A stretch of DNA of 55,548 nt from a virus, in UHGV virus genome UHGV-0016284; one strand, written 5' to 3'. The notes beneath the pieces are model-generated. The model had not been told where the DNA came from, ran no database searches, and saw only the letters and a program-made list of their open reading frames with translations. A program made the translations under genes and the position numbers. This document shows, piece by piece, positions 16,730-40,994 of this stretch; position 1 is the first letter of the stretch, and every line of letters begins with the position of its first letter.

Positions 16730-17398
16730 TTAGTTACAAGTTAAAAGCTCAGTGATCCATACTTGTCCTTTAGCAGTGAATACAGCCTGCTCATATCCAT
16801 CGTGAGTTACCCTCATTTCACCGTAGCCCTCATCAATAAACCACTGACTAAATACACGGCGGCGACAGCGAAGATCGTAAACACCAACAGCCGAAAGTTT
16901 TCTGTTTAATTTTACGGCTGACATTCCCAGCGGTTTAGCAACCTCTGAAGCCGTTCGGTGCATATCGTTTTTGACTATCGCGTCACATACAGCCGCTTTT
17001 GGCGCAAGTTCCTTATTAACCAGTGCAAGCCGTTCTTTTTCCTCAGCAAGATCGGCAGCAAGGCGCAACGCTTCGCTTAATGTTTGAGGAATTGCAGGGG
17101 CGTTTTGCTGTACCCGTTTTTCAAGTTCCTGCCAGCGGTCGATGATGCGAGCACGTAACTCAACGCTATAGCCAGATACAACCAGCAAAGAGTCACGCTT
17201 AGTTAAAAGCCATTCCCTCTGTGTTTGATTGTTGTATCCTTTGTAAGTTACTGATTTGCTTGATTCCCCCAAATTTGGGGCAATGACGTCAATGTCTCTC
17301 AATATGTGATCGTGCCGTTTACCAGTTAGCTTGGCGATCTCACGAGAAGACATTGTTAATACTTCGTTCGCCCCATTAAGCGCCATTAATTCAGACAT
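16730..17398 (-). CDS. Rha-family phage regulatory protein / antirepressor-like
   Basis: N-terminus ...TMSSREIAKLTGKRHDHILRDI is the Rha-family signature; C-terminal coiled-coil/KilA-C-like region. Confidence 0.6.
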   Translation of the reverse strand: MSELMALNGANEVLTMSSREIAKLTGKRHDHILRDIDVIAPNLGESSKSVTYKGYNNQTQREWLLTKRDSLLVVSGYSVELRARIIDRWQELEKRVQQNAPAIPQTLSEALRLAADLAEEKERLALVNKELAPKAAVCDAIVKNDMHRTASEVAKPLGMSAVKLNRKLSAVGVYDLRCRRRVFSQWFIDEGYGEMRVTHDGYEQAVFTAKGQVWITELLTCN

Positions 17399-17479
17399 TT
17401 TATTTTCTCCGGTTTACTGAATATATATTCACAAAGAAAATTGACATCACCCGCCATAAATGACGTGGTTCTAATGCTT

Positions 17480-19297: not shown

Positions 19298-19464
19298 TAT
19301 TAATACCTCGCATTTAGTAATTTGCTTTTGCATGGATACAATCAATAAAACGCGCTACAACGCAAAAATCCCACCGCGTAACCCATTTGCACAGGTTGCA
19401 GTGTCTTATTGCGTCAGAGGCGCTTTCAGGTGGCTAATTTTTGATTTACAGACTGGTATGAAGG

Positions 19465-19703: not shown

Positions 19704-20750
19704 TTATGGGAAATTCCGTGTCTTGCGGAGCGTTTCGGGCTTCAGCAGAAAATCTATATCAGCCCGCCAGCCAGTGTTGTTGTTGCCAAAGTAGAAGTCG
19801 GGGGCATGCTTGTTGAAGTACTCGAAGTAGTTGATGAATGCTGTGATGTTTTTCTCCTTCATGCTGTCAGCCAGTCTATGTATCTTTCTCTCCAGATCGC
19901 GATCAAGCTCTGCATACGGCAGTGAGTCGCCGAATGTGTTGTTGTAGGCTTCTACTACCTCAGCAGCATCAATAACCGCGCCTTTTTGTTTCCATTGATT
20001 TGCCTTATCAAGTTTCTCAGCAAACAGCGTCTTCCTGCATATATTGAGTGGCGACAACTCGCCAGGTTCTTTCCTCCACACGCTCGCCACCCAATCAATG
20101 ACCAGTTTGATATCGTCAGGTGTAAAGCCGTTTGCTAGCAGCGTAACGAAAGGGCGGCTATCCCTGCTTTTCCCGCCGAGTCTGTCGCGGAAGTAGCTAA
20201 GCATATCCATTGCCTTAATCTGGTTTTGCGAAAGACCATTATCAACCACACTTTCCCCCTGTAGGGGGATTATAGGGGGTATATCTTTTTCTTTTTTTAC
20301 CTTGTTATTATTTATATCTACCTTGTTAGAGTCCCCCTCTAGGGACTTTGACTTGGCAAATGAAAGTCCCCCTCTAGGGACTTTGACTTCTTCTGCGGGG
20401 ATGGGTAAAAGTCCCCCTCTAGGGACTTTGACTTCTTCTGCGAGAATGAAGTCTTCAATGCTCATATCTTCGTTTTTTTGTACGACCTCCTTAAACTTTT
20501 CACTGAACCTGTAGATGTTCGAGGTGTTATATCTTCTTTTTCTGGATAGTACCCCGTATCTTTCCAGGACTTTTATTGCTGCAATGACGGAATCCCTTTT
20601 TATGTGACACCTTCTGGCTAGCGTGTCTATGCTCGGGTAGCATTGGTTTTTATCGTGGTCAGCATACCAGGCCAAAGTAATGAGGACGTAACTTACATTG
20701 CGATCATCAATAAGAAGCCTGAACGCGCGATCCTGTAGTTCGTATGCCAT
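19704..20750 (-). CDS. replication initiator (lambda O-like organisation, origin iterons inside the gene)
   Basis: N-terminal HTH-like domain (PSIDTLARRCHIKRDSVIAAIKVLERYGVL); central linker EEVKVPRGGLLPIPAEEVKVPRGGL encoded by DNA iterons; first long gene of the leftward early operon. Confidence 0.6.
   Translation of the reverse strand: MAYELQDRAFRLLIDDRNVSYVLITLAWYADHDKNQCYPSIDTLARRCHIKRDSVIAAIKVLERYGVLSRKRRYNTSNIYRFSEKFKEVVQKNEDMSIEDFILAEEVKVPRGGLLPIPAEEVKVPRGGLSFAKSKSLEGDSNKVDINNNKVKKEKDIPPIIPLQGESVVDNGLSQNQIKAMDMLSYFRDRLGGKSRDSRPFVTLLANGFTPDDIKLVIDWVASVWRKEPGELSPLNICRKTLFAEKLDKANQWKQKGAVIDAAEVVEAYNNTFGDSLPYAELDRDLERKIHRLADSMKEKNITAFINYFEYFNKHAPDFYFGNNNTGWRADIDFLLKPETLRKTRNFP
20285..20440. 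repeat. origin-like iterons (3 copies of a 25-bp unit) with adjacent AT-rich tract
   Basis: agtccccctctagggactttgactt at 20330-20354, 20365-20389 and 20410-20434, each with an internal inverted repeat (agtccc/gggact); AT-rich ctttttctttttttaccttgttattatttatatc upstream. Confidence 0.55.
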
Positions 20751-28177: not shown

Positions 28178-28661
28178 CAGGTTATTAGCCTGCGTTTATG
28201 TCGCCGTTTTTGTGATCATCAACCTTATTGTTAACCACTGCGGCCCGTGGGTAATTCCGATCACCACGGTAGCCGCCGTGTGTGTCAATATGATGATCCG
28301 CGACTTTCTGTTATATGACGGCGGCCTGAAATGGTCGGCTACAACATGCGCCGTCGCTGGCGCAATCACGGTGCTAATAAATTACGATGCAGGAATGGTG
28401 GCAATAGCGTCATTCGTCGCGGTTGTTTCAGGTGCGCTTATATCTGGCGGTGTTTACCGGGTTTTGCCTGGTGATTTCGATTCGAAGCGCTGGCCTGCAA
28501 ATATAGCTTCAGCCATCGGGGATGCGTTAATTTTCCCGACGCTATCGTTTATGGCGTTTATGCCGGAAATATCAGCAATGCAGTTTATCTCAAAAATGGC
28601 AGCGGTAACGGTGATCACTATCATCATGCGCCGCTATTTCACGTTTGAGGGTAGGAAATGA
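28158..28661 (+). CDS. integral membrane protein (4-5 predicted TM helices); possible DUF165/VUT-type transporter
   Basis: Hydrophobic throughout; loose similarity by eye to YhhQ-family transporters (ASAIGDALIFPTLSFMAF versus YhhQ ASTLFGNVSDTLAFFFIAF). Family assignment is tentative. Confidence 0.5.
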   Translation: MERVTIDRLLACVYVAVFVIINLIVNHCGPWVIPITTVAAVCVNMMIRDFLLYDGGLKWSATTCAVAGAITVLINYDAGMVAIASFVAVVSGALISGGVYRVLPGDFDSKRWPANIASAIGDALIFPTLSFMAFMPEISAMQFISKMAAVTVITIIMRRYFTFEGRK

Positions 28662-29185
28662 ATTGGGATGATTATTTTATATACAATCCAGATACAGGTA
28701 AGTTGTACTGGAAATATAGAAATGACATAGAAGAATCAAGGCGTAAACAATGGAATGCGTGTAATGCTGGTCATGAAGTTGGACATATTGGCGGTAGCGG
28801 TGGGTATCTTAATACAGCGCTTACCGTTGGTGGAAAGCGTTATAATTTAAAAGTTCACAGAATATGTTATGAGATGTACTATGGCCCAATACCTGAAGGA
28901 AAGGAGGTTGATCATATAAATCACATTAAAACAGATAACAGAGCAGTAAATCTTGGATTAAAGGACCATAAAGATAATATGCGCAACATGTCTTTGATGG
29001 TAAACAATACCAGTGGATGTACTGGCGTACATAAAAACAAACATGGGAAATGGGTTGTTAGAATAGGAGGAGGCAAAAGAGGCAATAGGATTTATATAGG
29101 TTGTTTTTCTGATATTAATGACGCAATAAAAGCGCGGCGCGACGCTGAAAAAGAGTATGGATATCACGAAAACCACGGCAAATAG
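28658..29185 (+). CDS. HNH endonuclease with AP2-like DNA-binding domain (homing-endonuclease-like)
   Basis: YNLKVHRICYEMYYGPIPEGKEVDHINHIKTDNRAVNL (HNH_3-like); CTGVHKNKHGKWVVRIG....IYIGCFSDINDAIKARR (AP2-like). Confidence 0.65.
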   Translation: MNWDDYFIYNPDTGKLYWKYRNDIEESRRKQWNACNAGHEVGHIGGSGGYLNTALTVGGKRYNLKVHRICYEMYYGPIPEGKEVDHINHIKTDNRAVNLGLKDHKDNMRNMSLMVNNTSGCTGVHKNKHGKWVVRIGGGKRGNRIYIGCFSDINDAIKARRDAEKEYGYHENHGK

Positions 29186-30638: not shown

Positions 30639-30821
30639 ATGAAAAACGAAATTAAAGATCTGCAAATAGATATTCAGCGCGATGAGCATGATTTAGAGAC
30701 TGTGCGACAAATACAGGCTTTCCACATGCGAGAATTGCTTGCGCTTAAAGAGCTTGAAAGAAAGTTGGTGCAGGCAATATCTGATCGCAAGAAACTTGTT
30801 GCGCGTTACGGGGGCAAATAA
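30639..30821 (+). CDS. hypothetical coiled-coil protein (60 aa)
   Basis: ORF in operon. Confidence 0.4.
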   Translation: MKNEIKDLQIDIQRDEHDLETVRQIQAFHMRELLALKELERKLVQAISDRKKLVARYGGK

Positions 30822-31543
30822 TGAATTTGGAATCAATTCTCAAATTCCACTTCCCAAAATCACCGCGTTTATCAGATGAAAGTCGGGGCACGTCCCCGGA
30901 TGCGTTTAATACTACGGATGCACTAACTGCCGCAGGTATGGCGCAATCGCGCGTAGAGCTTGGTTATAGCGCTTTTTTAGGGAAGATGGAACTATCACAA
31001 GCCGAAAAACATAAGGCCGTAGTTTTGCTTACAGAGCGTTTAAGGGCTATGGCAAAAGATTATGAATACGTTATGGAACTGGACGAGGCCAAACGCAATG
31101 ATCTCATTATTCTTGTTGCCGTTTTCGCGTTTCGGGATTATTGCCAAAGCGCCGCGACGGAAAAAACTTGTATGGAGTGCGGCGGATATAAATTTACGTT
31201 TGACGAATACGGAGAAAAACACCTTTGCAAAAAATGCAAGGGGCATGGGACAGTTCGCAATCATTGTAAACAATGCAAGGGTCGTGGCGAGATACCGGAT
31301 AAAACAGCCAGCGAAGCGGCGGAAATGCCAGTATTCAAAACGTGCCAGCACTGCGGCGGGCGCGGGTACTCGCGTTTCCCTGTAGATCTTGTCCGGCAGG
31401 CGGTTAATCAGCTTGTTTTTCCGGTAAGCCGATCAACATGGTGGAAGAAGTACCGCGCTTTCTATGAAGACGCCATTGCCGAATTGTTCAAAGAAGAGGC
31501 GCGGGCTGACAACGAAATCAAACGAGTGACACGGGGTGAATGA
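30821..31543 (+). CDS. Q: late-gene antiterminator Q (lambda Q-like)
   Basis: Aligns by eye with lambda Q from the N-terminus (MNLESILKFHFPKSPRLSDESRGTSPDAF...TAAGMAQSRVELGYSAFLGKMELSQAEKHKAV) through the Cys-rich zinc region. Confidence 0.85.
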   Translation: MNLESILKFHFPKSPRLSDESRGTSPDAFNTTDALTAAGMAQSRVELGYSAFLGKMELSQAEKHKAVVLLTERLRAMAKDYEYVMELDEAKRNDLIILVAVFAFRDYCQSAATEKTCMECGGYKFTFDEYGEKHLCKKCKGHGTVRNHCKQCKGRGEIPDKTASEAAEMPVFKTCQHCGGRGYSRFPVDLVRQAVNQLVFPVSRSTWWKKYRAFYEDAIAELFKEEARADNEIKRVTRGE

Positions 31544-31743
31544 TGGATAAGCTGGAAATAAACGATCAGTTTGCTGTTATCTTGTTCGAAGATAAAACGG
31601 GCGGTGCATGGTGCAAGAAAGTTACCGGTGCTGAAGCGCGTTTAATATTGGGCATGGCAAGCGCATTAAACGAAGGTGAATTACCAGCCGTGCCAATTGA
31701 GCCTGTTCATATTTACGGACGGAGAAACGACAATGAAGCCTAA
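31540..31743 (+). CDS. hypothetical protein (67 aa)
   Basis: ATGA overlap with the Q stop. Confidence 0.4.
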   Translation: MMDKLEINDQFAVILFEDKTGGAWCKKVTGAEARLILGMASALNEGELPAVPIEPVHIYGRRNDNEA

Positions 31744-32002
31744 ATTAAAGGATCATGAATTTAGGGAGCTTATAAACGGAATAACTGACAAAGCAAGGAC
31801 GTACTCAAATGCACAACAATTAAGGGCGGTAATAGTTACTGAATTGCGGAAATATATAGACTTAACAGATCCGGTTGATGCTATGACTATGGACAAGGCC
31901 ATCAAGCGCCGTTCGGCTGATTGGTCAGTTAGCAACACTGGATTAACCGGATACATCGAAGGCTATAACGACTGTTTACAGGATCATAGCAATGAAAAGT
32001 AA
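31733..32002 (+). CDS. hypothetical protein (89 aa)
   Basis: GGAGA ribosome-binding site before ATG 31733. Confidence 0.4.
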   Translation: MKPKLKDHEFRELINGITDKARTYSNAQQLRAVIVTELRKYIDLTDPVDAMTMDKAIKRRSADWSVSNTGLTGYIEGYNDCLQDHSNEK

Positions 32003-32204
32003 CCGTAAGCGCCTTGTAAGGGCATATGACAAAGCATTAAAGGCTTTTGATGATTTGCGTCGCAATAAGCGCCAGCGCCGTAAATGGGCGCGAATGCTTG
32101 TAAGAGAATGGCATAGCGAGGACTATTTCCTTGATGCCAAGCACATGACGCAGGATGTAGCCGACATGTTAGCTGATGAGAACGTTTATTATATGATGTG
32201 GTGA
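31992..32204 (+). CDS. hypothetical basic protein (70 aa)
   Basis: ORF in operon. Confidence 0.35.
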   Translation: MKSNRKRLVRAYDKALKAFDDLRRNKRQRRKWARMLVREWHSEDYFLDAKHMTQDVADMLADENVYYMMW

Positions 32205-32208
32205 TAAT

Positions 32209-32574
32209 ATGCAAATAATTATTGATTATCTTTGTCATGCTGTGAATACGCTTTTTGGTTTTTATCAACAACCATTCCTAAAAGAATGGGATGAAATGCT
32301 TAATGACATCATTGATAAAGGGTTAATAGTTGAAGTAGGCGAGCTAACGATAAAATTCAATTACGAAGGAAAAGAATATGATATATGGGTAGGTAACAGA
32401 TGGTACGCATACGGGCATATTTATTCAATTGGCGGCAAATACATTAAACGCAGCCAGGAGTTCAGGCCACGATTCCGCACAATGCGCCGCCTGCGTGACC
32501 TGCATATGAATATATTGGAAAATCAGGAAGCGTGTGAACTATTCAAGATCTACGGAGATAAATCATGGAGCTAA
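32209..32574 (+). CDS. hypothetical protein (121 aa)
   Basis: GGTGA ribosome-binding site before the ATG. Confidence 0.45.
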   Translation: MQIIIDYLCHAVNTLFGFYQQPFLKEWDEMLNDIIDKGLIVEVGELTIKFNYEGKEYDIWVGNRWYAYGHIYSIGGKYIKRSQEFRPRFRTMRRLRDLHMNILENQEACELFKIYGDKSWS

Positions 32575-32795
32575 AAATCTGGCAGGCTATCGACGTAGTT
32601 GATAATGAATTATCTATGTTTGCCACTGACGGAAAGCGCGTGGTGATCGCTACATGGACGCGCAACCATGATGATATTTCTTTTCGTCGCAGAACGGCGG
32701 AGTGGTTTTTCTCTGAAGGCGGCTACACGATGAACATCGCACAGCTTGCCAGAATGAAAGATGAAAAGCTGGTGGACAGCTACACAACTGCTTAA
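32565..32795 (+). CDS. hypothetical protein (76 aa)
   Basis: ORF overlapping upstream gene. Confidence 0.4.
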   Translation: MELKIWQAIDVVDNELSMFATDGKRVVIATWTRNHDDISFRRRTAEWFFSEGGYTMNIAQLARMKDEKLVDSYTTA

Positions 32796-32805
32796 CGGGG
32801 TGAAT

Positions 32806-33039
32806 ATGCGTATCTATGAACACAAGCGGGATAAAACCCGCTTTTTTGTCCGTGCTGGCGTGGCGTACTGGTATCACGAATGCGGATACATTGAAGCTGT
32901 TGCTTACGATTTGGATTTTGAACAGGAAAAAGAATGGTTCGACTTCAAGATCTACCGGAAGCGCAAACCAACGCGCGACGAACGCCACGCCATCCGGGAC
33001 TTTTTAATCAGCATTGAGCGTTGGGGGACAGAAGAGTGA
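32806..33039 (+). CDS. hypothetical protein (77 aa)
   Basis: GGGGTGA ribosome-binding site before ATG 32806. Confidence 0.4.
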   Translation: MRIYEHKRDKTRFFVRAGVAYWYHECGYIEAVAYDLDFEQEKEWFDFKIYRKRKPTRDERHAIRDFLISIERWGTEE

Positions 33040-33263
33040 AAGTTAAATTCTTGCACGATCACGGTTATCCGTCATTGAAACAGGTTGTTGGTAAGGTCGT
33101 TAATGTCGTTCATAGCGATGATGTCACTTGCATGATTAACGGTGCTGATTTAATCGCCGCTGGCGCTGATGACCATTACATAAATCCGGCATGGTCGTAT
33201 ACGTTCAGCCTGGGCGACTTCGTTGGCGATAAGGGGCGCGGGCTGGAAGTAGTCGAGGGTTAA
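33036..33263 (+). CDS. hypothetical protein (75 aa, GTG start)
   Basis: GTG at 33036 preceded by GGGGGA. Confidence 0.35.
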   Translation: MKVKFLHDHGYPSLKQVVGKVVNVVHSDDVTCMINGADLIAAGADDHYINPAWSYTFSLGDFVGDKGRGLEVVEG

Positions 33264-33267
33264 CATC

Positions 33268-33516
33268 ATGGACGTTTACGAAGATGTTTACCTGGCCCCT
33301 TCATTCTGTAGCTTTTACTTTCTGATCAACGATAAGACTTACAGGTGCGATTCTGATGGGGTTAGGGAAGAAAAGCTGTTTTGCACCAGGGGGCACCTGG
33401 ACGATTTGGTTTTTGCTGGCATATTCCGTAAACGTCCTGCCAACCTGGAAGAAGAAATGTTGATTGAGGTTATTAAAAATGAAAATCAGGGTAAGTTATT
33501 TCCGGGCAAAAGATAA
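33268..33516 (+). CDS. hypothetical protein (82 aa)
   Basis: GAGGG ribosome-binding site. Confidence 0.4.
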   Translation: MDVYEDVYLAPSFCSFYFLINDKTYRCDSDGVREEKLFCTRGHLDDLVFAGIFRKRPANLEEEMLIEVIKNENQGKLFPGKR

Positions 33517-33532
33517 GGCAACAGGAAAGCAG

Positions 33533-33730
33533 ATGGCGATCCTGGTTAACGAGGCTGGATACATGTTTGTGCTTCAGTCGTGGTGTGTTGTAGATCTTAA
33601 CGACAACTGTCGCCGCCACGCTGCGCGAAGTGCTGTTGGTATGAAAGGCTGGCAACCGCGCGACATGGAAAACTACTGTGACTGGAAATTAGTAGCAAAA
33701 TACACGGTAGATTATAAAGGGGTTTTCTGA
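33533..33730 (+). CDS. hypothetical Cys-containing protein (65 aa)
   Basis: AGGAAA ribosome-binding site before ATG 33533 (track start 33464). Confidence 0.35.
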   Translation: MAILVNEAGYMFVLQSWCVVDLNDNCRRHAARSAVGMKGWQPRDMENYCDWKLVAKYTVDYKGVF

Positions 33731-33748
33731 TAGTGGTGAGGTGGTGTT

Positions 33749-33955
33749 ATGCAGGTTAAATGTGTCGAATCAAATAGCAACATTTTTGTAGTCGATAAGA
33801 TTTATCACGTCTATCAGGTTTTGGGCGTTGACTGCGATGAAAGAGATCAAGTGCTAATTGATGAAGATGGCGACCCGTGGAAATTCCTATATCGCTACGC
33901 CAGCGGCGGCGATGTTATTGGTATTCACATTCGTGCAAAATTTGAACTATGTTAA
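33749..33955 (+). CDS. hypothetical protein (68 aa)
   Basis: GGTGAGG ribosome-binding site. Confidence 0.4.
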   Translation: MQVKCVESNSNIFVVDKIYHVYQVLGVDCDERDQVLIDEDGDPWKFLYRYASGGDVIGIHIRAKFELC

Positions 33956-33964
33956 GGTTTAATC

Positions 33965-34264
33965 ATGAAAAGCGACAAATTCATTGCGTGCTGTTTTGTT
34001 GAAGTTCCTAAAGGTGATGTTTTCTGCAATTATGAATTTAAAGACAGCTTAGGCAGATCTCATGTTGTTGTTGGTAAGCGCGGCGACTGGTTATATATCA
34101 CTGATGGAGACAGGATCTTCACTAAAAACCAGTTGTTAAGAATAAAGGCAGAAAATAATGAAATACCGGTTGGTAATATGGGGATTATGAATTATCACGC
34201 TGGTTTATCGTTAAAACACGATGCGGTAAATAAAGCGCGTAGCTTACCTGGTGCAGAATTTTAA
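33965..34264 (+). CDS. hypothetical protein (99 aa)
   Basis: ORF in operon. Confidence 0.4.
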   Translation: MKSDKFIACCFVEVPKGDVFCNYEFKDSLGRSHVVVGKRGDWLYITDGDRIFTKNQLLRIKAENNEIPVGNMGIMNYHAGLSLKHDAVNKARSLPGAEF

Positions 34265-34287
34265 TTTATTACGAAGGAGAATAACAA

Positions 34288-34611
34288 ATGTCTAAATTTG
34301 TCAGTGTTAAAGTTTTTCGTGGTACTTTTCCGAACGAAGAAAGATTGGGACAATTCGCCGGACAATCTGGCGCATGTTTCCGCGTGGCAACTGACGACGA
34401 AGCTAACGTCAAGTGCTTCCATGTAGCTGAACCGCCTTTTAATGCAGACCATCTTGAAGACCTGAATAGAATTAAAAGCCTTATTTTTGCTTATCTGGCG
34501 TTCCCTGGTATTGGTGATGCTGATGTCGAATTACTTGGCGCTGAACTGTTTGCGGAATACAAAATGACTGAAGGGGTAGAAGGGGGAATTGAAATTGAGC
34601 GCATCAAGTAA
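34288..34611 (+). CDS. hypothetical protein (107 aa)
   Basis: GAAGGAGA ribosome-binding site. Confidence 0.45.
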   Translation: MSKFVSVKVFRGTFPNEERLGQFAGQSGACFRVATDDEANVKCFHVAEPPFNADHLEDLNRIKSLIFAYLAFPGIGDADVELLGAELFAEYKMTEGVEGGIEIERIK

Positions 34612-34849
34612 GCTATACAAGATCAGGTGCAAAGGCGAATACCCTGGCTTTACTACTGGATGCGAATACCTGGGCCATATTGGGTATGGCCCTTTCGGTG
34701 AGTTAGGGATGAATACGATGGACGACGACGGCGACAGCAGGACGCTTGATCTTGATTCTGATGATTTCGAATACATCCCGCCGATAACTTACCGCGACGT
34801 TGATGATTTCATGGCCGAACATGACGACGAGGACGATGATGATGATTGA
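34589..34849 (+). CDS. small highly acidic protein (Asp-rich, C-terminal poly-D/E tail)
   Basis: Track ORF starts at a non-ATG codon; a likelier start is ATG 34709 (46 aa, MNTMDDDGDSRTLDLDSDDFEYIPPITYRDVDDFMAEHDDEDDDDD). Confidence 0.35.
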   Translation: MKLSASSKLYKIRCKGEYPGFTTGCEYLGHIGYGPFGELGMNTMDDDGDSRTLDLDSDDFEYIPPITYRDVDDFMAEHDDEDDDDD

Positions 34850-35036
34850 GTGCCTTATTGCTGTTATTGTTTTGCTTTATATCGCTGGCGCTATCCTGAT
34901 GTCATGTTTTATTAAGGTTAGCGAGGCTGACCGTTGCGGATTTGAGATCCCTTTCTGGCCTGTATTGGTTTTTCTCGCTTTCTTTGATGCTACGGTAGTG
35001 CAGATCAAGCGAGCTATTAAGGAGCGCGAGAAATGA
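34842..35036 (+). CDS. small membrane protein (64 aa, two hydrophobic segments)
   Basis: MIECLIAVIVLLYIAGAILMSCFIKV...FWPVLVFLAFFDATVV; ATG overlaps the upstream stop. Confidence 0.4.
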   Translation: MIECLIAVIVLLYIAGAILMSCFIKVSEADRCGFEIPFWPVLVFLAFFDATVVQIKRAIKEREK

Positions 35037-35203
35037 TTGAAGACGGTATCTATTTGCACAAGTTATTTACCTTCGCTTACTTGGTTAAAGGTGATAGGGT
35101 GTTGATACAAAGCGCGGGCAATAAATATTGGGAATCAAGCGGTATGGATCGCGAACACATGCAAACATTGCTTGATAACGGCCTGATATACAGAACTGCA
35201 TAA
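35033..35203 (+). CDS. small hypothetical protein (56 aa)
   Basis: ATGA overlap with the upstream stop; followed by a terminator. Confidence 0.35.
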   Translation: MIEDGIYLHKLFTFAYLVKGDRVLIQSAGNKYWESSGMDREHMQTLLDNGLIYRTA

Positions 35204-35228
35204 AGCCGTATTTGTAGAGCGCAAACAG

Positions 35229-35252
35229 GACCCGCTTCGGCGGGTTTTATTT
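35229..35252 (+). terminator. rho-independent terminator upstream of the cargo gene
   Basis: Hairpin cccgc-ttcg-gcggg followed by ttttattt. Confidence 0.65.
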
Positions 35253-35264
35253 ATTGGGGGCAAT

Positions 35265-35963
35265 ATGGAAGAAATGGTTTTATTGTCATCAATATGGCAT
35301 AAATTCGGAAGCGAGAAAGGTTATTCCCCAGCTTGCTGGTTGAATAGCAAAAGCGGTGAGGAATATCAAGATAAGTGTGAGTTGCGACGGATAGGGAAAA
35401 AAGGGAGCGCTGCTCGCGGGTATTTTGCTCCGCAATATGTGGCAAATGAGTATGGCGGCTGGTTGGCCAGGTCATTGACTAAAGTATCGTCACTTGTCTG
35501 CCTTACAGATATATGGAGGAATCACGATGCGCCCGAGTCGCGTCGTCCTTATCTTTGGTTGCAACGTCGTGGGTGGATATACAAAGACAGCACAAAAGTT
35601 ATAGGCAGTAAGACTTACGCAACAAAAGATGTGGCCGCTGCTTATGATGCGTGGTTGTGTGGTATTGAGAATAATAGACCTTACGGCAATGAGGCGTTTG
35701 CCAGAATTGAGCACGGCGCTTTATGCATGTATGAACAATTGGTTGGTGTTAAGCTAATTAGACAATATAAGGTATTGGAATACCGGATAGATGGTTATGA
35801 TCCGGTAAATAATATCGCCGTAGAAATTGACGAAGGGCATCATAAAAGCCAGGAGGCATCTGACGCTATACGTCAGCGCCGTATTGAAGAGGAGTTGGGA
35901 TGTTCATTTTTTCGGTGTCGCATATTTGACACGGAAACTGCGCAATATTGCAATGAAAAATAA
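35265..35963 (+). CDS. cargo protein with C-terminal Vsr/DUF559-like (PD-(D/E)xK-type) nuclease domain
   Basis: C-terminus YRIDGYDPVNNIAVEIDEGHH.......DAIRQRRIEEELGCSFFR matches the DUF559/Vsr-like pattern (..VDF..P...L.IE.DG..H......D..R...L...G..V.RF) by eye. N-terminal ~140 aa unassigned. Confidence 0.5.
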   Translation: MEEMVLLSSIWHKFGSEKGYSPACWLNSKSGEEYQDKCELRRIGKKGSAARGYFAPQYVANEYGGWLARSLTKVSSLVCLTDIWRNHDAPESRRPYLWLQRRGWIYKDSTKVIGSKTYATKDVAAAYDAWLCGIENNRPYGNEAFARIEHGALCMYEQLVGVKLIRQYKVLEYRIDGYDPVNNIAVEIDEGHHKSQEASDAIRQRRIEEELGCSFFRCRIFDTETAQYCNEK

Positions 35964-36003
35964 AAAAGATTAGCATATTTACAACAATGCGAAACTGTAA
36001 CTA

Positions 36004-36030
36004 CCCGGCCCCGCGCCGGGTTTTTGCTTT
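36004..36030 (+). terminator. rho-independent terminator immediately upstream of the holin gene (tR'-like position)
   Basis: Hairpin cccggc-cccgc-gccggg followed by ttttt; GGAGGA ribosome-binding site and holin ATG follow. Confidence 0.65.
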
Positions 36031-36045
36031 GTTGGAGGAAAATCT

Positions 36046-36246
36046 ATGTTCGACAGAATACGGGAGGCGTGTGCGTATGTGACTGGGGCCGTAACTGCTT
36101 TTTTCGGCGCGATAACCATCAATGACGTCGCTGTTTTCGTTGGTATCTTATCAACCGTAGGCACATTTGCCGTTAATTATTACTTCAAATCACAGGAGAA
36201 CAAGCGGGCGCAAGAGGAACACGACGCGCGAATGGGGAATAAGTAA
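36046..36246 (+). CDS. holin (small two-TM type, pinholin-like)
   Basis: 66 aa, two hydrophobic segments, charged C-terminus (KSQENKRAQEEHDARMGNK); directly precedes the endolysin. Confidence 0.6.
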   Translation: MFDRIREACAYVTGAVTAFFGAITINDVAVFVGILSTVGTFAVNYYFKSQENKRAQEEHDARMGNK

Positions 36247-36738
36247 ATGATTAGCCAATCGCTGAAAAACAAGATTGTTGCGGCGGCGGCTGGTGGGGCG
36301 ATCGCTATTGCGGGGGCGATGATAAAAGATCTTGAAGGCGTTGAGTATAAGCCATACAGAGATGTCATCGGTGTTTACACGATATGTTATGGACACGTCG
36401 GAAAAGACATCATGCTTGGTAAGACTTACACGCAATCAGAATGCGATGCTTTGTTAAATAAAGATCTACACAAGACCGCAAAAGCGATTGACCCATATAT
36501 CAAAGTCGAAGTATCAGATTTTACCCGCGCTGCACTTTATTCCTTCGCCTATAACGTAGGCGCAACCAACTTCAAAACATCAACCTTATTAAAGCTACTC
36601 AATGACGGCAAGAAATCGGAAGCGTGCGCACAGCTTAAGCGCTGGGTATACGCTGGCGGTAAGAAGTGGCAAGGCCTGGTTAACCGCCGCGATGTTGAAT
36701 ATGCCGTTTGCGAATGGGGTGAGAAATGGACAAGGTGA
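36247..36738 (+). CDS. SAR endolysin (lysozyme, GH24 / T4-lysozyme-like)
   Basis: Catalytic E-x8-D-x5-T triad in [22 protein letters not shown]; N-terminal weakly hydrophobic Gly/Ala-rich signal-anchor-release segment ([17 protein letters not shown]). Confidence 0.8.
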
Positions 36739-37196
36739 AGACGTTAATCATCGCCGTTGTTGTTTGCATTATTGCCAGCCTTACCGCCGTAACGTGTTAT
36801 TACCAGGGTGAGGCAGCAAGGTTACAGGAAGAAGTCACGGTAACGAAAGGCGCACTGAAAACGGCAAGTAACACTATTCAGCAGATGAAGGAGCGAAACG
36901 CCGAACTGTCAAAACTTGATAAGAGGTATCACGATGAGATTAAAGCTATCAGATCTGACATTGCTGATCTGCGCACTGGTATTGACAATGGCACTATCAA
37001 GCTGCGCGTCAACGCCGTGCCAATGCGAACGGACAGTAATACCGGAGCCGCCAGCCGCATTGATGGAGCCTCCTGTAGACTCACTCCCGACGCTGAATCG
37101 GCTTATCTATCCCTCAGAGAACAACTAAAAACGAAAGACGCTCAGATCACTGGGTTACAGGACTACATAAAAACGCAGTGCTTACGCAAAGAATAA
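36726..37196 (+). CDS. Rz-like inner-membrane spanin
   Basis: N-terminal TM helix ([16 protein letters not shown]), coiled-coil periplasmic domain; overlaps the endolysin stop. Confidence 0.7.
36934..37128 (+). CDS. Rz1-like outer-membrane lipoprotein spanin, embedded in the +1 frame of Rz
   Basis: [26 protein letters not shown]: lipobox LSSC; Pro-rich mature peptide; fully nested inside the Rz gene. Confidence 0.6.
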   Translation: MRLKLSDLTLLICALVLTMALSSCASTPCQCERTVIPEPPAALMEPPVDSLPTLNRLIYPSENN

Positions 37197-37533
37197 CAGC
37201 GCGTGGACGTGTCGCCGTTTCCGCCAGCCAGCCATAACCGGGCCAATCCTTCCCGCGAGCGACGGCGGAAATTCAAAAACACGTAATACCGGATCAACAG
37301 TCCCATTAACAGGTCCGGCGCTACCTGGGTAGAAGAAAGCGCCATTTACTCACCTGCCATGCGTAGGACGAGCGCCCGGATCTGTTTATCAGAGATGTTA
37401 AGCAGGTCCAGTTTTATAAAATTCTGCAAACGGTACTCATGCAGTGCCGTTTTTAGTGTTTTATAGCTGTTTTCACTCCCTGCGGTGTCCAGTTTTGCGG
37501 GGGTTATACTTTTCAGGATAGAGGAATATTCTG

Positions 37534-38118
37534 ATGGCTAAGGCTAAAGGCATCAAGTTGCCTCAATTCAAAGTTCCGCTCTTTGAGCATACAATAGTTT
37601 TCTTCTGCCCGACCCGCGACATGTTTTATGAATTTTGCGAAAGGGCTGGAATACCAATTGAACCTGATTTCGAACTGGCAGGAGGGTTGACGCTTACTTG
37701 CACTGGTGAGAAAGGCGGTAACTTCTACGTGATCGCAGTATTCGATAATGAGCTTGGTACGCTGGTCCATGAAGCGGCGCATACGACATTCCACGTTCTA
37801 AGCGATGTAGGTGTCGTGGCAACCACTGATCCAACTCATCCGGCGAACGAGACTTATGCTTACATGGTAGGCCGCATCTTTGACGCATTCTTCCCAATCC
37901 TGGCTGAGTCAAACGAAGCACAGATTGCAGCTATGCAGGCCGCTGAAGTCGTAGAGAAGGCATTAGATCAGGCGGAAAAGGCGACCGATGCAGCAGAACA
38001 GGCAGTGGAACAGGTAGAGGAGCCGAAAGAAGAGAAAAAGCCAGTTAAGAAAGGCAAACGTAAGCCTAAAGCAAAAGAAGCGCTTGTACCGCGTGTTATG
38101 AGCTTTAAACGGGGGTGA
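37534..38118 (+). CDS. hypothetical protein with HExxH motif and Lys/Glu/Ala-rich C-terminal tail
   Basis: LVHEAAHTTFHVL (HEAAH...H) in a ~110-aa N-terminal domain; C-terminal low-complexity basic tail (EEPKEEKKPVKKGKRKPKAKE). Confidence 0.5.
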   Translation: MAKAKGIKLPQFKVPLFEHTIVFFCPTRDMFYEFCERAGIPIEPDFELAGGLTLTCTGEKGGNFYVIAVFDNELGTLVHEAAHTTFHVLSDVGVVATTDPTHPANETYAYMVGRIFDAFFPILAESNEAQIAAMQAAEVVEKALDQAEKATDAAEQAVEQVEEPKEEKKPVKKGKRKPKAKEALVPRVMSFKRG

Positions 38119-38120
38119 TT

Positions 38121-38189
38121 ATGGTTACTTTCCTGTTAGGTTTATTTATCGGAATGGCTGCGGCTGTAATATTGCTGGTTGGTGAATAA
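38121..38189 (+). CDS. minipeptide 1 of tandem array (22 aa, single TM helix)
   Basis: MVTFLLGLFIGMAAAVILLVGE; GGGGGTGA ribosome-binding site; starts 2 nt after the upstream stop. Confidence 0.4.
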   Translation: MVTFLLGLFIGMAAAVILLVGE

Positions 38190-38193
38190 TGTT

Positions 38194-38310
38194 ATGGATG
38201 ATTATATCATTGCCGGATTGATCGGCATTTCTGTATATCTGGTGGGTTTTATTGCAGTTGCACTAATAAACGCAAAGATCAAGCACTGGGGGGGGGGAGG
38301 GGCAAGATGA
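38194..38310 (+). CDS. minipeptide 2 of tandem array (38 aa); contains a G10 homopolymer
   Basis: MDDYIIAGLIGISVYLVGFIAVALINAKIKHWGGGGAR; GGTGA ribosome-binding site; the G10 tract at 38288-38297 encodes WGGGG. Confidence 0.4.
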   Translation: MDDYIIAGLIGISVYLVGFIAVALINAKIKHWGGGGAR

Positions 38311-38381
38311 TTGACCCGCTCATTATCCTTTCTGCCTGCGTCGCTGTATGGCTGGCTATCATGATATTCATTGAAAGCTAA
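38307..38381 (+). CDS. minipeptide 3 of tandem array (24 aa)
   Basis: MIDPLIILSACVAVWLAIMIFIES; ATGA overlap with peptide 2; GGAGGGG ribosome-binding site. Confidence 0.4.
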   Translation: MIDPLIILSACVAVWLAIMIFIES

Positions 38382-38392
38382 AGGTTCTCATC

Positions 38393-38467
38393 ATGAATAT
38401 TTACGATCTAATCTGGTGGTCGTTGGTCGCCGTCATTATCTATTTCTGGTGGAAGAATGTTGTATAG
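38393..38467 (+). CDS. minipeptide 4 of tandem array (24 aa)
   Basis: MNIYDLIWWSLVAVIIYFWWKNVV. Confidence 0.35.
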   Translation: MNIYDLIWWSLVAVIIYFWWKNVV

Positions 38468-38475
38468 GTGAAAGC

Positions 38476-38556
38476 ATGAACGCATACGAAATGCTATTGC
38501 TGGTGGCTGTTATTACAGTTATTGCCGTTGATTTCTATAGAGGGTTAAAAAGATGA
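38476..38556 (+). CDS. minipeptide 5 of tandem array (26 aa)
   Basis: MNAYEMLLLVAVITVIAVDFYRGLKR; AGGTGA ribosome-binding site. The track ORF 38371..38556 is a probable over-extension from a non-ATG start. Confidence 0.4.
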   Translation: MNAYEMLLLVAVITVIAVDFYRGLKR

Positions 38557-38639
38557 GAGAAGCAGACTTCTTTTGCATAATTATAGTGATCGTCATCGTT
38601 GCGGTGCTTTTAAGCGTTAACGGAATCGCAGGGGGTTGA
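38553..38639 (+). CDS. minipeptide 6 of tandem array (28 aa)
   Basis: MREADFFCIIIVIVIVAVLLSVNGIAGG; ATGA overlap with peptide 5. Confidence 0.4.
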   Translation: MREADFFCIIIVIVIVAVLLSVNGIAGG

Positions 38640-38641
38640 AA

Positions 38642-38710
38642 ATGAAATGGCTTGATTTCTTTTTCCTGATTGTCGCGATTGTTCTAACCATGACCGCGCT
38701 GACTCAATAG
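38642..38710 (+). CDS. minipeptide 7 of tandem array (22 aa)
   Basis: MKWLDFFFLIVAIVLTMTALTQ; GGGGG ribosome-binding site; starts 2 nt after the peptide 6 stop. Confidence 0.4.
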   Translation: MKWLDFFFLIVAIVLTMTALTQ

Positions 38711-38778
38711 GTTGTGGCTTGGACGCGCATTTTATGCGCTTCCTAAATTCAGCAAGTCAAATAAAGTGGACGGCAACA

Positions 38779-38862
38779 ATGAAAGAGCTATTCGACTGGT
38801 TGGAAGTATTAACATACTGCGCAAGTTTTGTGGCTTGCGTATATATCATCAACAAATATTAA
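38779..38862 (+). CDS. minipeptide 8 (27 aa)
   Basis: MKELFDWLEVLTYCASFVACVYIINKY; same architecture as peptides 4-7 (M-x-x-acidic, then hydrophobic helix); weak ribosome-binding site. Confidence 0.3.
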   Translation: MKELFDWLEVLTYCASFVACVYIINKY

Positions 38863-39017
38863 TGGGTGACGCGATGAATAATGAAGAACTAAAAATTGCT
38901 GATGAAGTCAGAAAGGCACTTGACGCGGCAGAAAACAATAAAACTATCTATCTTTCCGAGCGGGAAGTAGAAAAGATGATGGATGAATTTAAATTAAAAT
39001 TTGAAAAAGATAATTGA
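38862..39017 (+). CDS. small acidic helical protein (51 aa)
   Basis: MGDAMNNEELKIADEVRKALDAAENNKTIYLSEREVEKMMDEFKLKFEKDN; start overlaps the peptide 8 stop; lies just before terminase. Confidence 0.35.
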   Translation: MGDAMNNEELKIADEVRKALDAAENNKTIYLSEREVEKMMDEFKLKFEKDN

Positions 39018-39027
39018 GAGGTGAATT

Positions 39028-39513
39028 ATGGCCCGCACTAAAAAGGCAAAGGCTGACGATAAAAAGCCAGCGGCTAAAAAGGTGGGCCGTCCGCATGGTT
39101 ATACCGAAGAAAAGGCATTAGAGATCTGTGAGCTGGTGGCGGACGGTCAGAGTATTAACAAGATTTCGAAGATGCCTGATATGCCTGCGCGTTCAACAAT
39201 CCTTAAATGGTTCAGAGACGTGCCGGAATTCTCGGACATGTACATGCGCGCGAAGGAAATCGGCTTCGAGGTATTAGCTGATGAGATCATCGATATAGCC
39301 GATGCGGCGGAGAATATCGATAAAGACGAATGCCGCCGCCATCAACTGATGATTGAAACCCGTAAATGGCTATTGGCAAAACTGCAACCGCGTAAGTATG
39401 GTGAACGCGTTACACAGGAGATCGTCGGCAACAGGGAAGAAGCGCCCGTACAGGTAGAAGTCACAAAAGAAGAGATCGCCCGCATCGTTCAGGAAGTAGA
39501 AGATGAGGTGTGA
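39028..39513 (+). CDS. terminase small subunit
   Basis: GRPHGYTEEKALEICELVADGQSINKISKMPDMPARSTILKWFRDVPEFSDMYMRAKEIGFEVLADEIIDIADAA matches the common phage small-terminase HTH family; directly precedes the large subunit. Confidence 0.8.
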   Translation: MARTKKAKADDKKPAAKKVGRPHGYTEEKALEICELVADGQSINKISKMPDMPARSTILKWFRDVPEFSDMYMRAKEIGFEVLADEIIDIADAAENIDKDECRRHQLMIETRKWLLAKLQPRKYGERVTQEIVGNREEAPVQVEVTKEEIARIVQEVEDEV

Positions 39514-39515
39514 TT

Positions 39516-40994
39516 ATGTTGACAATCAAAGAACGAGTTATTCAGTCCAAATGTGAAAACGATGGCCTGTTTTTCAATCGCTACTTTTACAAGCAAGCGA
39601 ACGGAACGAAGATGTTAATCTCAGGCCATCATTTAGCTATCCGCGACGCACTGCAACACGTTGTCAATGGTGAGATAACCCGACTCATCATTAACATTCC
39701 CCCAGGGTACGGCAAAACCATGATCGCTACTATCAACATGATGGCGCGGTCCCTCGCAATAAATCCCCGCACAAGATTCCTTCACGTTTCCTATTCCAAC
39801 AACCTGGCGCTACTCAACTCCTCGACCGTAAGAAACATGATTTGTACGCCTGAATATCAGGCAATGTGGCCCATGAGGATCCGCAACGATGCAAACTCAA
39901 AATCGATGTGGTGGACTGAATACGGTGGCGGCGTGTATGCAACGTCATCGCTGGGCCAGGTAACTGGGTTCCGTGCTGGGTATATGGAACCGGGATTCAA
40001 CGGTGCGTTAATCATCGACGACCCATTAAAACCCGCTGACGCTTACTCAGACGTGGTGAGAAAGCAGGTTAACACTAACTATAACGACACGCTTGCTTCA
40101 CGTCTGGCAGTGCAAACGACGCCTGTTATCGTCATTATGCAGCGCATCCACTACGATGATTTGTCCGGCTACCTGCTACGCGGTGGGAGCGGTGAAAAAT
40201 GGTATCACCTTAACCTGCCAGTGAAGATCGACAACAGCGTTGACTATCGGGATTTGTACCCTGAAAACGAGTTCGCCATCCCTATTGCTCACAACCTGCC
40301 AGATGGCTGGCTGTGGCCTAAAAAGCACAATGACGCCCATGAAGCTGGATTGAAGGCACACAGACGGTCATTTGAGGCCCAGTACATGCAGCGCCCGCGT
40401 AAATTCGACGAAGAGGGTGCATTGTGGACTGAAGCGATGATAACCGCAGCGCACCGGATGCAGATAACGCAGGACAAGATCCGCACGGTGATAGCCATTG
40501 ACCCAGCGACAACGTCATCTGATGAGTCTGACGAAACGGGGATCGTGGCGTGTTCCGCATATGGTGGCGGCAAGAATGCTCAGTATTCTGTTGATGGTGA
40601 CTATTCAGGCCGCATGTCGCCTAACGACTGGGCGCAAGCATCAATGAACGCCTACAACATCCATGAAGCTGACGCGATGGTTATCGAAACCAACCAGGGT
40701 GGGGAAATGGCAGAGGCCACACTACGCAATGCAGGATTTAAGGGCCGCATTGTTAAGGTGCACGCAAGTAAAGGTAAATTCGCCCGCGCCGAACCAATAT
40801 CAGCACTATATGCCCAGGGCAGAGTAGCCCACACTGGCAGCCTGTACACGCTGGAAAATCAAATGATGGAATACGTGCCAGCTACCGCTAAAAAATCCCC
40901 TGACCGTATGGATGCGATGGTATGGGGCATCACTGAATTAAGCCAACCACAGGCAATGGGCCTCATGTTACCCAAGCGCCTACGCGGATTTTAA
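39516..40994 (+). CDS. terminase large subunit
   Basis: Walker A-like PPGYGKT; ATPase plus nuclease-size architecture (493 aa); GAGGTG ribosome-binding site before ATG 39516. Confidence 0.85.
   Translation: MLTIKERVIQSKCENDGLFFNRYFYKQANGTKMLISGHHLAIRDALQHVVNGEITRLIINIPPGYGKTMIATINMMARSLAINPRTRFLHVSYSNNLALLNSSTVRNMICTPEYQAMWPMRIRNDANSKSMWWTEYGGGVYATSSLGQVTGFRAGYMEPGFNGALIIDDPLKPADAYSDVVRKQVNTNYNDTLASRLAVQTTPVIVIMQRIHYDDLSGYLLRGGSGEKWYHLNLPVKIDNSVDYRDLYPENEFAIPIAHNLPDGWLWPKKHNDAHEAGLKAHRRSFEAQYMQRPRKFDEEGALWTEAMITAAHRMQITQDKIRTVIAIDPATTSSDESDETGIVACSAYGGGKNAQYSVDGDYSGRMSPNDWAQASMNAYNIHEADAMVIETNQGGEMAEATLRNAGFKGRIVKVHASKGKFARAEPISALYAQGRVAHTGSLYTLENQMMEYVPATAKKSPDRMDAMVWGITELSQPQAMGLMLPKRLRGF

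Follow-up and report, generated by a model that had tools for sequence, protein, structure and literature searches.

A candidate homing-type endonuclease with KilA-N-like repeats and a Vsr-like nuclease domain upstream of the lysis genes of an mEpimmI-like coliphage

The virus genome UHGV-0016284 (55,548 nucleotides, which we call the window) encodes a protein of 232 amino acids (aa) at 35265-35963, just before its lysis genes. We think that there is about an even chance that this gene is a promoter-less, free-standing homing-type endonuclease. The protein has two tandem repeats followed by a nuclease domain with an intact catalytic set. The gene is under purifying selection, and it lies in a discrete insertion that is found next to several different flanking haplotypes. 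The open reading frame (ORF) and its C-terminal sequence are just as described in the original prediction, which was made from the sequence without database searches. Of the three functions offered there (a homing endonuclease, an exclusion nuclease, or a late factor that targets host DNA), the first fits the comparative evidence best.

The C terminus is supported as a Vsr/DUF559-type PD-(D/E)xK nuclease domain both by profile matches and by its predicted fold, as the original prediction had proposed. A lack of the PD-(D/E)xK fold would have refuted that proposal, and this is not what we find. Residues 157-209 match the Pfam family DUF559 (PF04480) at 24.0 bits, versus a gathering threshold of 20.6 bits (E = 3.8e-5). 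This match covers just positions 28-80 of the 109 in the profile, so the domain is a pared-down alpha-beta-beta-beta-alpha-beta core. The homologs P0002 and P0003 and a Krischvirus protein (see below) are likewise above the gathering threshold for DUF559. Residues 168-225 match PADLOC's mREase_II, which represents modification-dependent enzymes of the PvuRts1I type (E = 2e-8, profile positions 48-107 of 294). In a Pfam scan of the 232-aa protein, PF21598 was below its curated cut-off, and NCBIfam gave nothing meaningful for the protein. The full protein has only marginal matches to the sequences in the PDB, while a profile of the domain has weak but consistent ones: AbaSI (E = 0.017), PvuRts1I (E = 0.15), and the DUF559 structure 3hrl (E = 0.33). 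In an AlphaFold2 model, the domain has the alpha-beta-beta-beta-alpha-beta topology with predicted local distance difference test scores of 90-96, and its core superposes on solved Vsr-like members of the PD-(D/E)xK superfamily. A survey of that superfamily placed 1cw0, 3hrl, and 3r3p in one clade (PMC3424549).

The candidate catalytic residues are also intact. When the domain is aligned to AbaSI, D176, E187, D189, E190, and H193 correspond to D61, E72, D74, E75, and H78, and the activity of AbaSI is abolished by D61A, E75A, or H78A (PMC4081097). These five residues are invariant in 37 members of the family, as are E149, E157, and D200. They are also placed as in other Vsr-like folds, with an aspartate on beta2, acidic residues after beta3, and a histidine in the next loop. 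Because the catalytic residues align with those of AbaSI and are invariant in the family, we predict that the domain is an active nuclease with a single catalytic site. We did not identify a counterpart of K23 of AbaSI in the domain.

By sequence, the closest relative of the domain is the cleavage domain of PvuRts1I and AbaSI, which has the same D...E-x-D-E-x-H-H motif. PvuRts1I and AbaSI are restriction enzymes that depend on 5-hydroxymethylcytosine (5hmC). They have the opposite domain order, and they are bacterial defense genes rather than phage genes. Also, the 232-aa protein does not contain the SRA-like region that binds 5hmC, and we do not assign it to their class. As there is no SRA-like reader of modified bases, its specificity must come from the N-terminal repeats. 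Vsr itself has a Zn site and intercalating residues that are not evident in our domain.

The first 140 aa were unassigned in the original prediction, but they contain two copies of a rare and probably DNA-binding module. Residues 1-72 and 75-135 are tandem repeats of about 60 aa (30% identity, E = 3e-6 from BLASTP of repeat 1 versus repeat 2), and in the model both repeats have helices, then a beta-hairpin, and then a long helix. Repeat 1 is similar to phrog_23715, a family of 75-aa proteins (E = 8.5e-34), and all of the family matches within the N terminus are to repeat 1. The repeats are weakly similar to KilA-N/APSES winged-helix domains. Repeat 1 matches KilA-N (PF04383) at 18.9 bits (E = 1.4e-3), which is below the gathering threshold of 23.8 bits, and a 75-aa homolog scores 15.2 bits, also below the threshold. 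Three of seven repeat sequences matched KilA-N (best E = 8e-4), and no other family was matched. No NUMOD families were found in a Pfam scan at E ≤ 10. The module also seems to be rare: phmmer with residues 1-145 against 1.84 billion representative proteins found just two proteins, and a profile of the repeat against 5.8 billion proteins found just the 75-aa family. The N terminus is nearly an orphan, so no deep alignment of it could be built. Given the resemblance to KilA-N, it is reasonable to suppose that the module binds DNA.

These modules bear on the last of the functions in the original prediction. The protein could be a late nuclease that is directed at the host, so as to supply nucleotides from host DNA, or it could process RNA, as the RAP and FASTK domains share the fold. 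A location in the transcription unit near the lysis genes would suit either role. Nevertheless, we consider this to be very improbable. Two specific-looking DNA-binding modules speak against bulk degradation, the D...ExDExHH motif matches that of DNA endonucleases, and most of the phage's relatives do without the gene.

By sequence similarity, the window is a near-complete genome from the mEpimmI (mEp021-like) group of temperate coliphages, from a phage of gut E. coli. Its length of 55.5 kb agrees with that of whole-phage contigs on which the 232-aa gene is also found. The sequences flanking the gene are 90-93% identical to those of Escherichia phages mEp021, mEp010, mEp013, mEp515, mEp554, mEp044, and MagusPhagus. 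The mEpimmI phages are Nus-dependent, non-lambdoid temperate siphoviruses whose prevalence in the human gut has been reported (PMC11893012). The 232-aa gene is absent from all seven of these isolated phages and from the prophages of all 26 complete genomes of E. coli that have the slot. Instead, these relatives have a 56-58-aa ORF, about 60 bp, one terminator (TERM_5 in mEp021 or T9 in mEp010), and then the holin. In BLAST comparisons, the homology with cassette-less relatives ends at 35227 and resumes at 35963, so the window carries a 735-bp insertion that comprises a hairpin, a ribosome-binding site (GGGGG), and the ORF.

Many metagenomes and assemblies have contigs that encode the identical protein (62 index blocks), and 17 further contigs have P0001, an allele with 90% identity to it. 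In every contig that we examined, the gene is immediately 5' of the holin. The phages with the P0001-type allele (L007 and similar contigs) have another upstream gene, a 65-aa ORF, and their homology to the window begins at the hairpin, at 35230. E. coli 09-00049 contains a cassette-less version of this second backbone (L024). Comparing it to the filled version, the insertion is at the same point of the same block, AAACAAA[C/T]AGATTAAAATATT...AACAATGCGAAA. To the right of the cassette, all of the carriers have GATTA[G/C]CATATTTACAACAATG and all of the non-carriers have GATTAAAATATT[A/T]CCTAACAATG. So, as expected for a homing endonuclease, the gene is present or absent at a fixed site among close relatives, with precise junctions. 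We also considered an IS200/IS605-type transposon with a hairpin end, but this is ruled out, as there is no transposase and just a single hairpin.

The gene has been maintained by selection. Between the window's allele and the P0001-type allele, the ratio of nonsynonymous to synonymous divergence (dN/dS) is 0.054, with dS of about 1, so the protein is functional and has been for a long time. This rules out a decaying pseudogene or a chance ORF. Within each of the three regions of the protein, dN/dS is 0.03-0.08, and the nuclease domain has the lowest dN.

Near-identical cassettes are found on varied flanks. Compared to the window, the cassettes of L004 and L006 have just 2 synonymous changes in 696 nucleotides, while the 56-aa ORFs next to them are only 76-81% identical to the window's. 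Overall, three left-flank haplotypes adjoin near-identical cassettes, and the point of switching is at most about 25 bp from the cassette's end. Two of these haplotypes (those of L004 and L006) match, wholly or partly, the haplotypes of cassette-less phages. The right flanks are mosaic as well, with haplotypes that are common to cassette-less and cassette-bearing phages. Mosaic flanks around near-identical cassettes would fit repeated copying of the cassette, and ordinary recombination at a conserved junction could also give this pattern. The same insertion point in two backbones, together with these varied flanks, seems to be explained more easily by nuclease-driven copying.

Several points weigh against homing. 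First, the alleles of the cassette share 84% nucleotide identity, which is about the same as for the lysis genes (about 85%). Because the cassette and the backbone have diverged to similar extents, vertical co-inheritance along with homologous recombination could explain much of what we see. Second, mosaic flanks are common in temperate phages, whatever their cargo. Third, strong purifying selection is equally expected for a gene that is useful to the phage. Fourth, we detected no sequence similarity to the EDxHD family of homing endonucleases: its structure 3r3p was not found at E ≤ 10 when we compared the profile of the C-terminal domain to all PDB sequences. Finally, cleavage, the target site, and biased inheritance are what we infer rather than what we observe.

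Most of these data would also fit a late, sequence-directed nuclease that acts in competition or exclusion, cutting the DNA of competitor phages (whether co-infecting or resident) or of another mobile element, and that spreads by ordinary recombination with no homing. The same domain evidence applies to it, the strong purifying selection points to a benefit for the phage, the similar divergence of the cassette and the backbone is as expected, and the nuclease domain is closest in sequence to the cleavage domain of PvuRts1I/AbaSI-type defense enzymes. On the other hand, the protein has no SRA domain or other signature of a defense system (the PADLOC match is to the nuclease domain only), and a shared insertion point with varied flanks is easier to explain by nuclease-driven copying. 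Overall, we consider exclusion without homing to be unlikely. In practice, homing and exclusion are compatible.

Transcription of the gene would have to come from elsewhere. There are 17 nucleotides between the upstream hairpin and the start codon, with no match to a sigma-70 promoter, and the region has no more promoter-like sites than expected by chance (16 versus 15.5). A weak candidate for the gene's own promoter (TTGATA-16-AATATT at 35102-35129) is not conserved in mEp021, and we rejected it. In the original prediction, the gene was isolated by strong hairpin terminators on both sides. These two hairpins are indeed ranked first and second in a terminator scan of 31000-40000, which found 17 sites, versus 8.6 ± 2.8 in shuffled sequences. 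The upstream hairpin (35227-35248) has the stem ACCCGC, the loop TTCG, and the stem GCGGGT, with a T-run to about 35255; the downstream hairpin (36003-36021) has the stem ACCCGGC, the loop CCCGC, and the stem GCCGGGT, and then TTTTT. Their folding energies are -15.8 and -18.4 kcal/mol, respectively, with z-scores of -2.4 and -2.6 relative to shuffles. But they are not a matched pair: the downstream terminator is part of the backbone in all relatives, which leaves just the upstream one as part of the insertion.

The original prediction also likened the gene to the toxin cargo of Stx phages, flanked by terminators. Like Stx cargo, it is located downstream of the Q gene and upstream of the holin and presumably depends on antitermination. 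The rest of the analogy fails: the phage belongs to the non-lambdoid mEpimmI group, the downstream terminator is from the backbone, and the gene adjoins neither Q nor a late promoter. Some 3.7 kb, with roughly 15-20 small ORFs, separate it from the Q gene. It is thus correct that the gene lies in the interval from Q to lysis but not that it directly follows Q. And with just 17 nucleotides from the hairpin to the start codon and no promoter match, the gene is not an autonomous, moron-type unit.

From all this we infer the DNA target, cleavage, the bias in inheritance, and the timing of expression that the homing endonuclease would have. The two modules, of the winged-helix type (KilA-N-like), would recognize a specific sequence in DNA and tether a minimal, Mg2+-dependent, Vsr-like cleavage domain with a single active site, which would probably need to form a dimer in order to break both strands, like AbaSI and I-Bth0305I. 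In the lysogen, the gene would be silent, with the hairpin keeping the nuclease off. Because there is no promoter match in the 17 nucleotides before the gene, we expect that it is read along with the lysis genes and only by terminator-resistant RNA polymerase (modified by Q or by Gp17, which is N-like). When a carrier meets a related cassette-less phage or prophage, the enzyme would cut at or near the conserved intergenic block AAACAAACAGATTAAAATATT...AACAATGCGAAA, upstream of the pre-holin terminator. (Alternatively, the target might be a nearby conserved gene.) Repair by recombination, with the carrier's genome as the template, would then insert a copy of the cassette. Carriers would themselves be immune, as their block is interrupted and altered.

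This proposal has precedents. I-Bth0305I is the founder of the Vsr-like "EDxHD" family of homing endonucleases, which includes the free-standing Hef from T4-related phages, and it has tandem N-terminal DNA-binding modules and a C-terminal nuclease (PMC3239194). Our protein is similarly phage-borne, with two N-terminal modules followed by a Vsr-like domain (theirs is about 100 aa) that has an equivalent set of acidic and histidine catalytic residues. However, the modules are KilA-N-like here and NUMOD/HTH there, and our gene is in an intergenic slot of a temperate phage rather than in a group I intron. The combination of Bro-N or KilA-N domains with a nuclease is an established arrangement in phage homing endonucleases (PMC8096241). 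As in the homing endonucleases of the ICP1 family, classes of phage DNA-binding domains appear to be swapped among nucleases, and there is a derivative with just the DNA-binding domain (CapR there, a 75-aa protein here). The nuclease itself is different: Vsr-like PD-(D/E)xK here and GIY-YIG/T5orf172 there. Finally, the free-standing endonucleases of T4 are often in promoter-less cassettes, and terminators are known there that lower the levels of endonuclease transcripts (PMC2988022). Like the seg and mob genes of T4, our gene is in an intergenic cassette that is oriented with its neighbors and varies in presence, has a terminator that may limit transcripts, and has a family member in a variable slot by gene 32 in a Krischvirus. 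The seg and mob enzymes are from other nuclease families, and they usually cut hundreds of base pairs away from their own genes.

The same nuclease domain of about 75 aa, with 55-70% identity, is found at the end of small proteins from phages and prophages that have differing N termini. These include Rha (PF09669), Bro-N (PF02498, such as mEp044_12), and the module that we describe here, with one repeat in P0002 and more than two copies in P0003. The genomic behavior of the family seems to resemble that of free-standing endonucleases. For example, in the T4-like Krischvirus vB_ESM-pEJ01, a 145-aa Rha-nuclease gene lies directly after gene 32 (L017 2782-3219). The slot after gene 32 is empty in PHB13 and contains a 460-aa "endonuclease" in Phi1 (L025 and L026 compared), and 63 other related records do not contain the pEJ01 gene. 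(In addition, an HNH gene lies in pEJ01 between gene 59, which is the helicase loader, and gene 32. In T4, segG is located between genes 32 and 59 (PMC2988022).) Similarly, mEp044_12 is present in just one of seven mEp phages, and P0002 and P0003 occupy a slot in the replication region of mEpimmI-like phages.

The company that these proteins keep suggests another explanation: the 232-aa protein could be a DNA-binding regulator or antirepressor of the KilA/Rha/Bro class, with the Vsr-like domain used for dimerization, nicking, or binding. Members of the family with Rha or Bro-N domains are annotated as "Rha family transcriptional regulator," and the window has an antirepressor-type Rha-KilAC gene in a slot where its siblings carry members of the nuclease family. 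Also, a stand-alone 75-aa homolog of the single module is under purifying selection in the same slot of other prophages, and CapR is a precedent for a domesticated DNA-binding domain of a homing endonuclease that acts as a repressor (PMC8096241). But the catalytic residues that are essential in AbaSI are invariant across the family, dN is lower in the nuclease domain than in either repeat region, and there is no evident reason for a regulator to sit behind a terminator and before lysis genes. We consider a purely regulatory role to be quite unlikely.

The 75-aa gene gives the slot a third state. It is homologous to repeat 1 only, and it fills the slot in E. coli FAH, in strain 190, and in several metagenomic phages. 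It is bordered by a 15-bp direct repeat, TAA[A/C]GCCGTATTTGT; its point of insertion is some 15 bp left of the junction of the 232-aa cassette; and it leaves the intergenic block intact. The GGGGG Shine-Dalgarno-like site is kept in the 75-aa allele and in the L007-type allele. Compared to repeat 1 of the 232-aa gene, the synonymous divergence is saturated. Two versions of the 75-aa gene have dN/dS of 0.11, from only 12 differences, which does not support the idea that this allele is a decayed remnant. So the slot can be empty, contain the DNA-binding module alone, or contain modules with a nuclease.

These states suggest a more speculative idea, which we think is rather improbable: the slot before the holin could contain an allelic pair of a "cutter" and a "shield," and the nuclease family could gain new homing sites by swapping DNA-binding domains. 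The conserved intergenic block would be the homing site of the 232-aa nuclease, and the 75-aa protein would bind the same DNA and shield its carrier from cleavage, or else regulate there. More broadly, the nuclease family would take new homing sites by acquiring DNA-binding domains that are related to resident phage regulators. The pairings that we would cite are a Rha-nuclease gene by a Rha gene, a Bro-N-nuclease gene inside a region with Bro-N genes, and a KilA-N-like nuclease gene in the slot of a KilA-N-like gene.

We did not find a published description of this nuclease family in the literature. It is most likely a lineage of Vsr-like homing-type nucleases that has not yet been described, and the same is true of its set of DNA-binding partners. 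Should cleavage and homing be confirmed, then it would be a further lineage of phage homing endonucleases, with an unusually small (about 80 aa) Vsr-like cutter that is related to AbaSI and PvuRts1I and is joined to phage DNA-binding domains that can be exchanged (KilA-N-like repeats, Rha, or Bro-N). At present, many members carry the label "Rha family transcriptional regulator" or "DUF559 protein," which would hide nucleases in the annotation of phages and prophages. The cassette also marks a hot spot of recombination just before the lysis genes of mEpimmI phages. And a compact modular nuclease scaffold would be a candidate for retargeting.

Table 1. Features of the cassette and its surroundings. 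Positions are in the window unless a contig is named.
Feature	Position	Strand	Remark
Q-type antiterminator gene	30821..31543	+	Pfam Antiterm PF03589, E = 1.2e-29
56-aa backbone ORF, left flank of cassette	35033..35203	+	Mosaic among cassette carriers
Conserved intergenic block, left part (TAAAGCCGTATTTGTAGAGCGCAAACA)	35201..35227	+	Homology to cassette-less phages stops at 35227
Inserted cassette, 735 bp (hairpin, ribosome-binding site, ORF)	35228..35962	+	Missing in cassette-less relatives
Upstream hairpin, intrinsic-terminator-like, UUCG loop and T-run	35227..35255	+	Moves with the gene in both backbones
Shine-Dalgarno-like GGGGG	35256..35260	+	4 nucleotides 5' of ATG; read directly from the sequence
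Nuclease ORF (232 aa, ATG)	35265..35963	+	Modular nuclease (predicted)
Repeat 1 (aa 1-72), KilA-N-like / winged-helix-like	35265..35480	+	Homologous to stand-alone 75-aa phrog_23715 proteins
Repeat 2 (aa 75-135), second copy of the module	35487..35669	+	BLASTP versus repeat 1
Minimal Vsr-like PD-(D/E)xK nuclease domain (aa 141-220)	35685..35924	+	
Candidate catalytic residues	D176, 35790-35792; E190, 35832-35834; H193, 35841-35843		Also E157, E187, D189, D200
Right remnant of intergenic block	35963..35989	+	AAAAGATTAGCATATTTACAACAATG here; ACAGATTAAAATATTACCTAACAATG in every cassette-less phage
Backbone intrinsic terminator before holin	36003..36031	+	In all relatives; TERM_5 in mEp021, T9 in mEp010
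Lysis cassette	36046..37196	+	Holin 36046-36246, endolysin 36247-36738, Rz-like spanin 36726-37196
Slot (window 35204-36002) with 75-aa allele	L015 1577-1804; L023 450-677; L020/L021 1501-1728		L015 is E. coli FAH; L023 is strain 190

As shown in Table 1, the gene is directly upstream of the holin, as had been claimed, and the endolysin and the Rz-like spanin follow. The lysis genes belong to Pfam families PF16080, PF00959, and PF03245 (assigned on near-identical contigs).

We also noticed other variable slots with endonucleases or regulators. In the window, a 621-aa HNH_3 ORF and a 222-aa gene of the antirepressor type with Rha and KilAC (ANT) domains occupy the slot at 16730-19345 (- strand), which has the replication initiator (19704-20750) on one side and the 372-aa and DnaB genes on the other. 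In sibling phages, the matching slot holds the Vsr-like nuclease members P0002, P0003, and mEp044_12. Where mEp554 has about 120 bp, mEp044 has a segment of 732 bp (L018 2117-3471 for mEp044 versus L019 1313-2056 for mEp554), and one gene of mEp554 (mEp554_12, 247 aa) corresponds to two genes of mEp044: its first 72 or so codons are common with mEp044_12, and its C-terminal part with mEp044_11. We considered whether mEp044_11 and mEp044_12 share a Bro-N domain, but BLASTP shows no similarity between them. In E. coli prophages, P0004 (Rha plus nuclease, 156 aa) is immediately 3' of a 276-aa gene with a Rha domain (L027-L029 3128-4471). With 33% identity between the two Rha domains (E = 2e-7), this member of the nuclease family lies beside a paralogous regulator. 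Also, the window has a 175-aa HNH_3 endonuclease gene (28658-29185, + strand; PF13392, E = 3e-16) upstream of a RusA-like gene. Its counterpart is between NinG and RusA in L004 and L005, while in L007 and L008, NinG is followed directly by RusA. This looks like a second free-standing endonuclease with a presence/absence polymorphism.

The interval from Q to the lysis genes (31543-35203) contains small uncharacterized ORFs whose order and content vary between relatives, and a late promoter is not evident there. In related contigs, the ORF after Q overlaps the stop codon of Q, with no intergenic gap. A scan of the whole window with Rfam found no RNA families. An imperfect palindrome, TAACAAT-GCGAA-ATTGTAA (35980-36002), lies just 5' of the pre-holin terminator and is kept in carriers and non-carriers; it could be a protein-binding site. 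Within the Rz-like gene, a patch at about 37000-37100 is 66-69% identical between loci that are otherwise 95-100% identical. Finally, the Rz-like gene contains an embedded 70-aa ORF (36916-37128, + strand) with a lipoprotein-like signal, which looks like an Rz1-type o-spanin.

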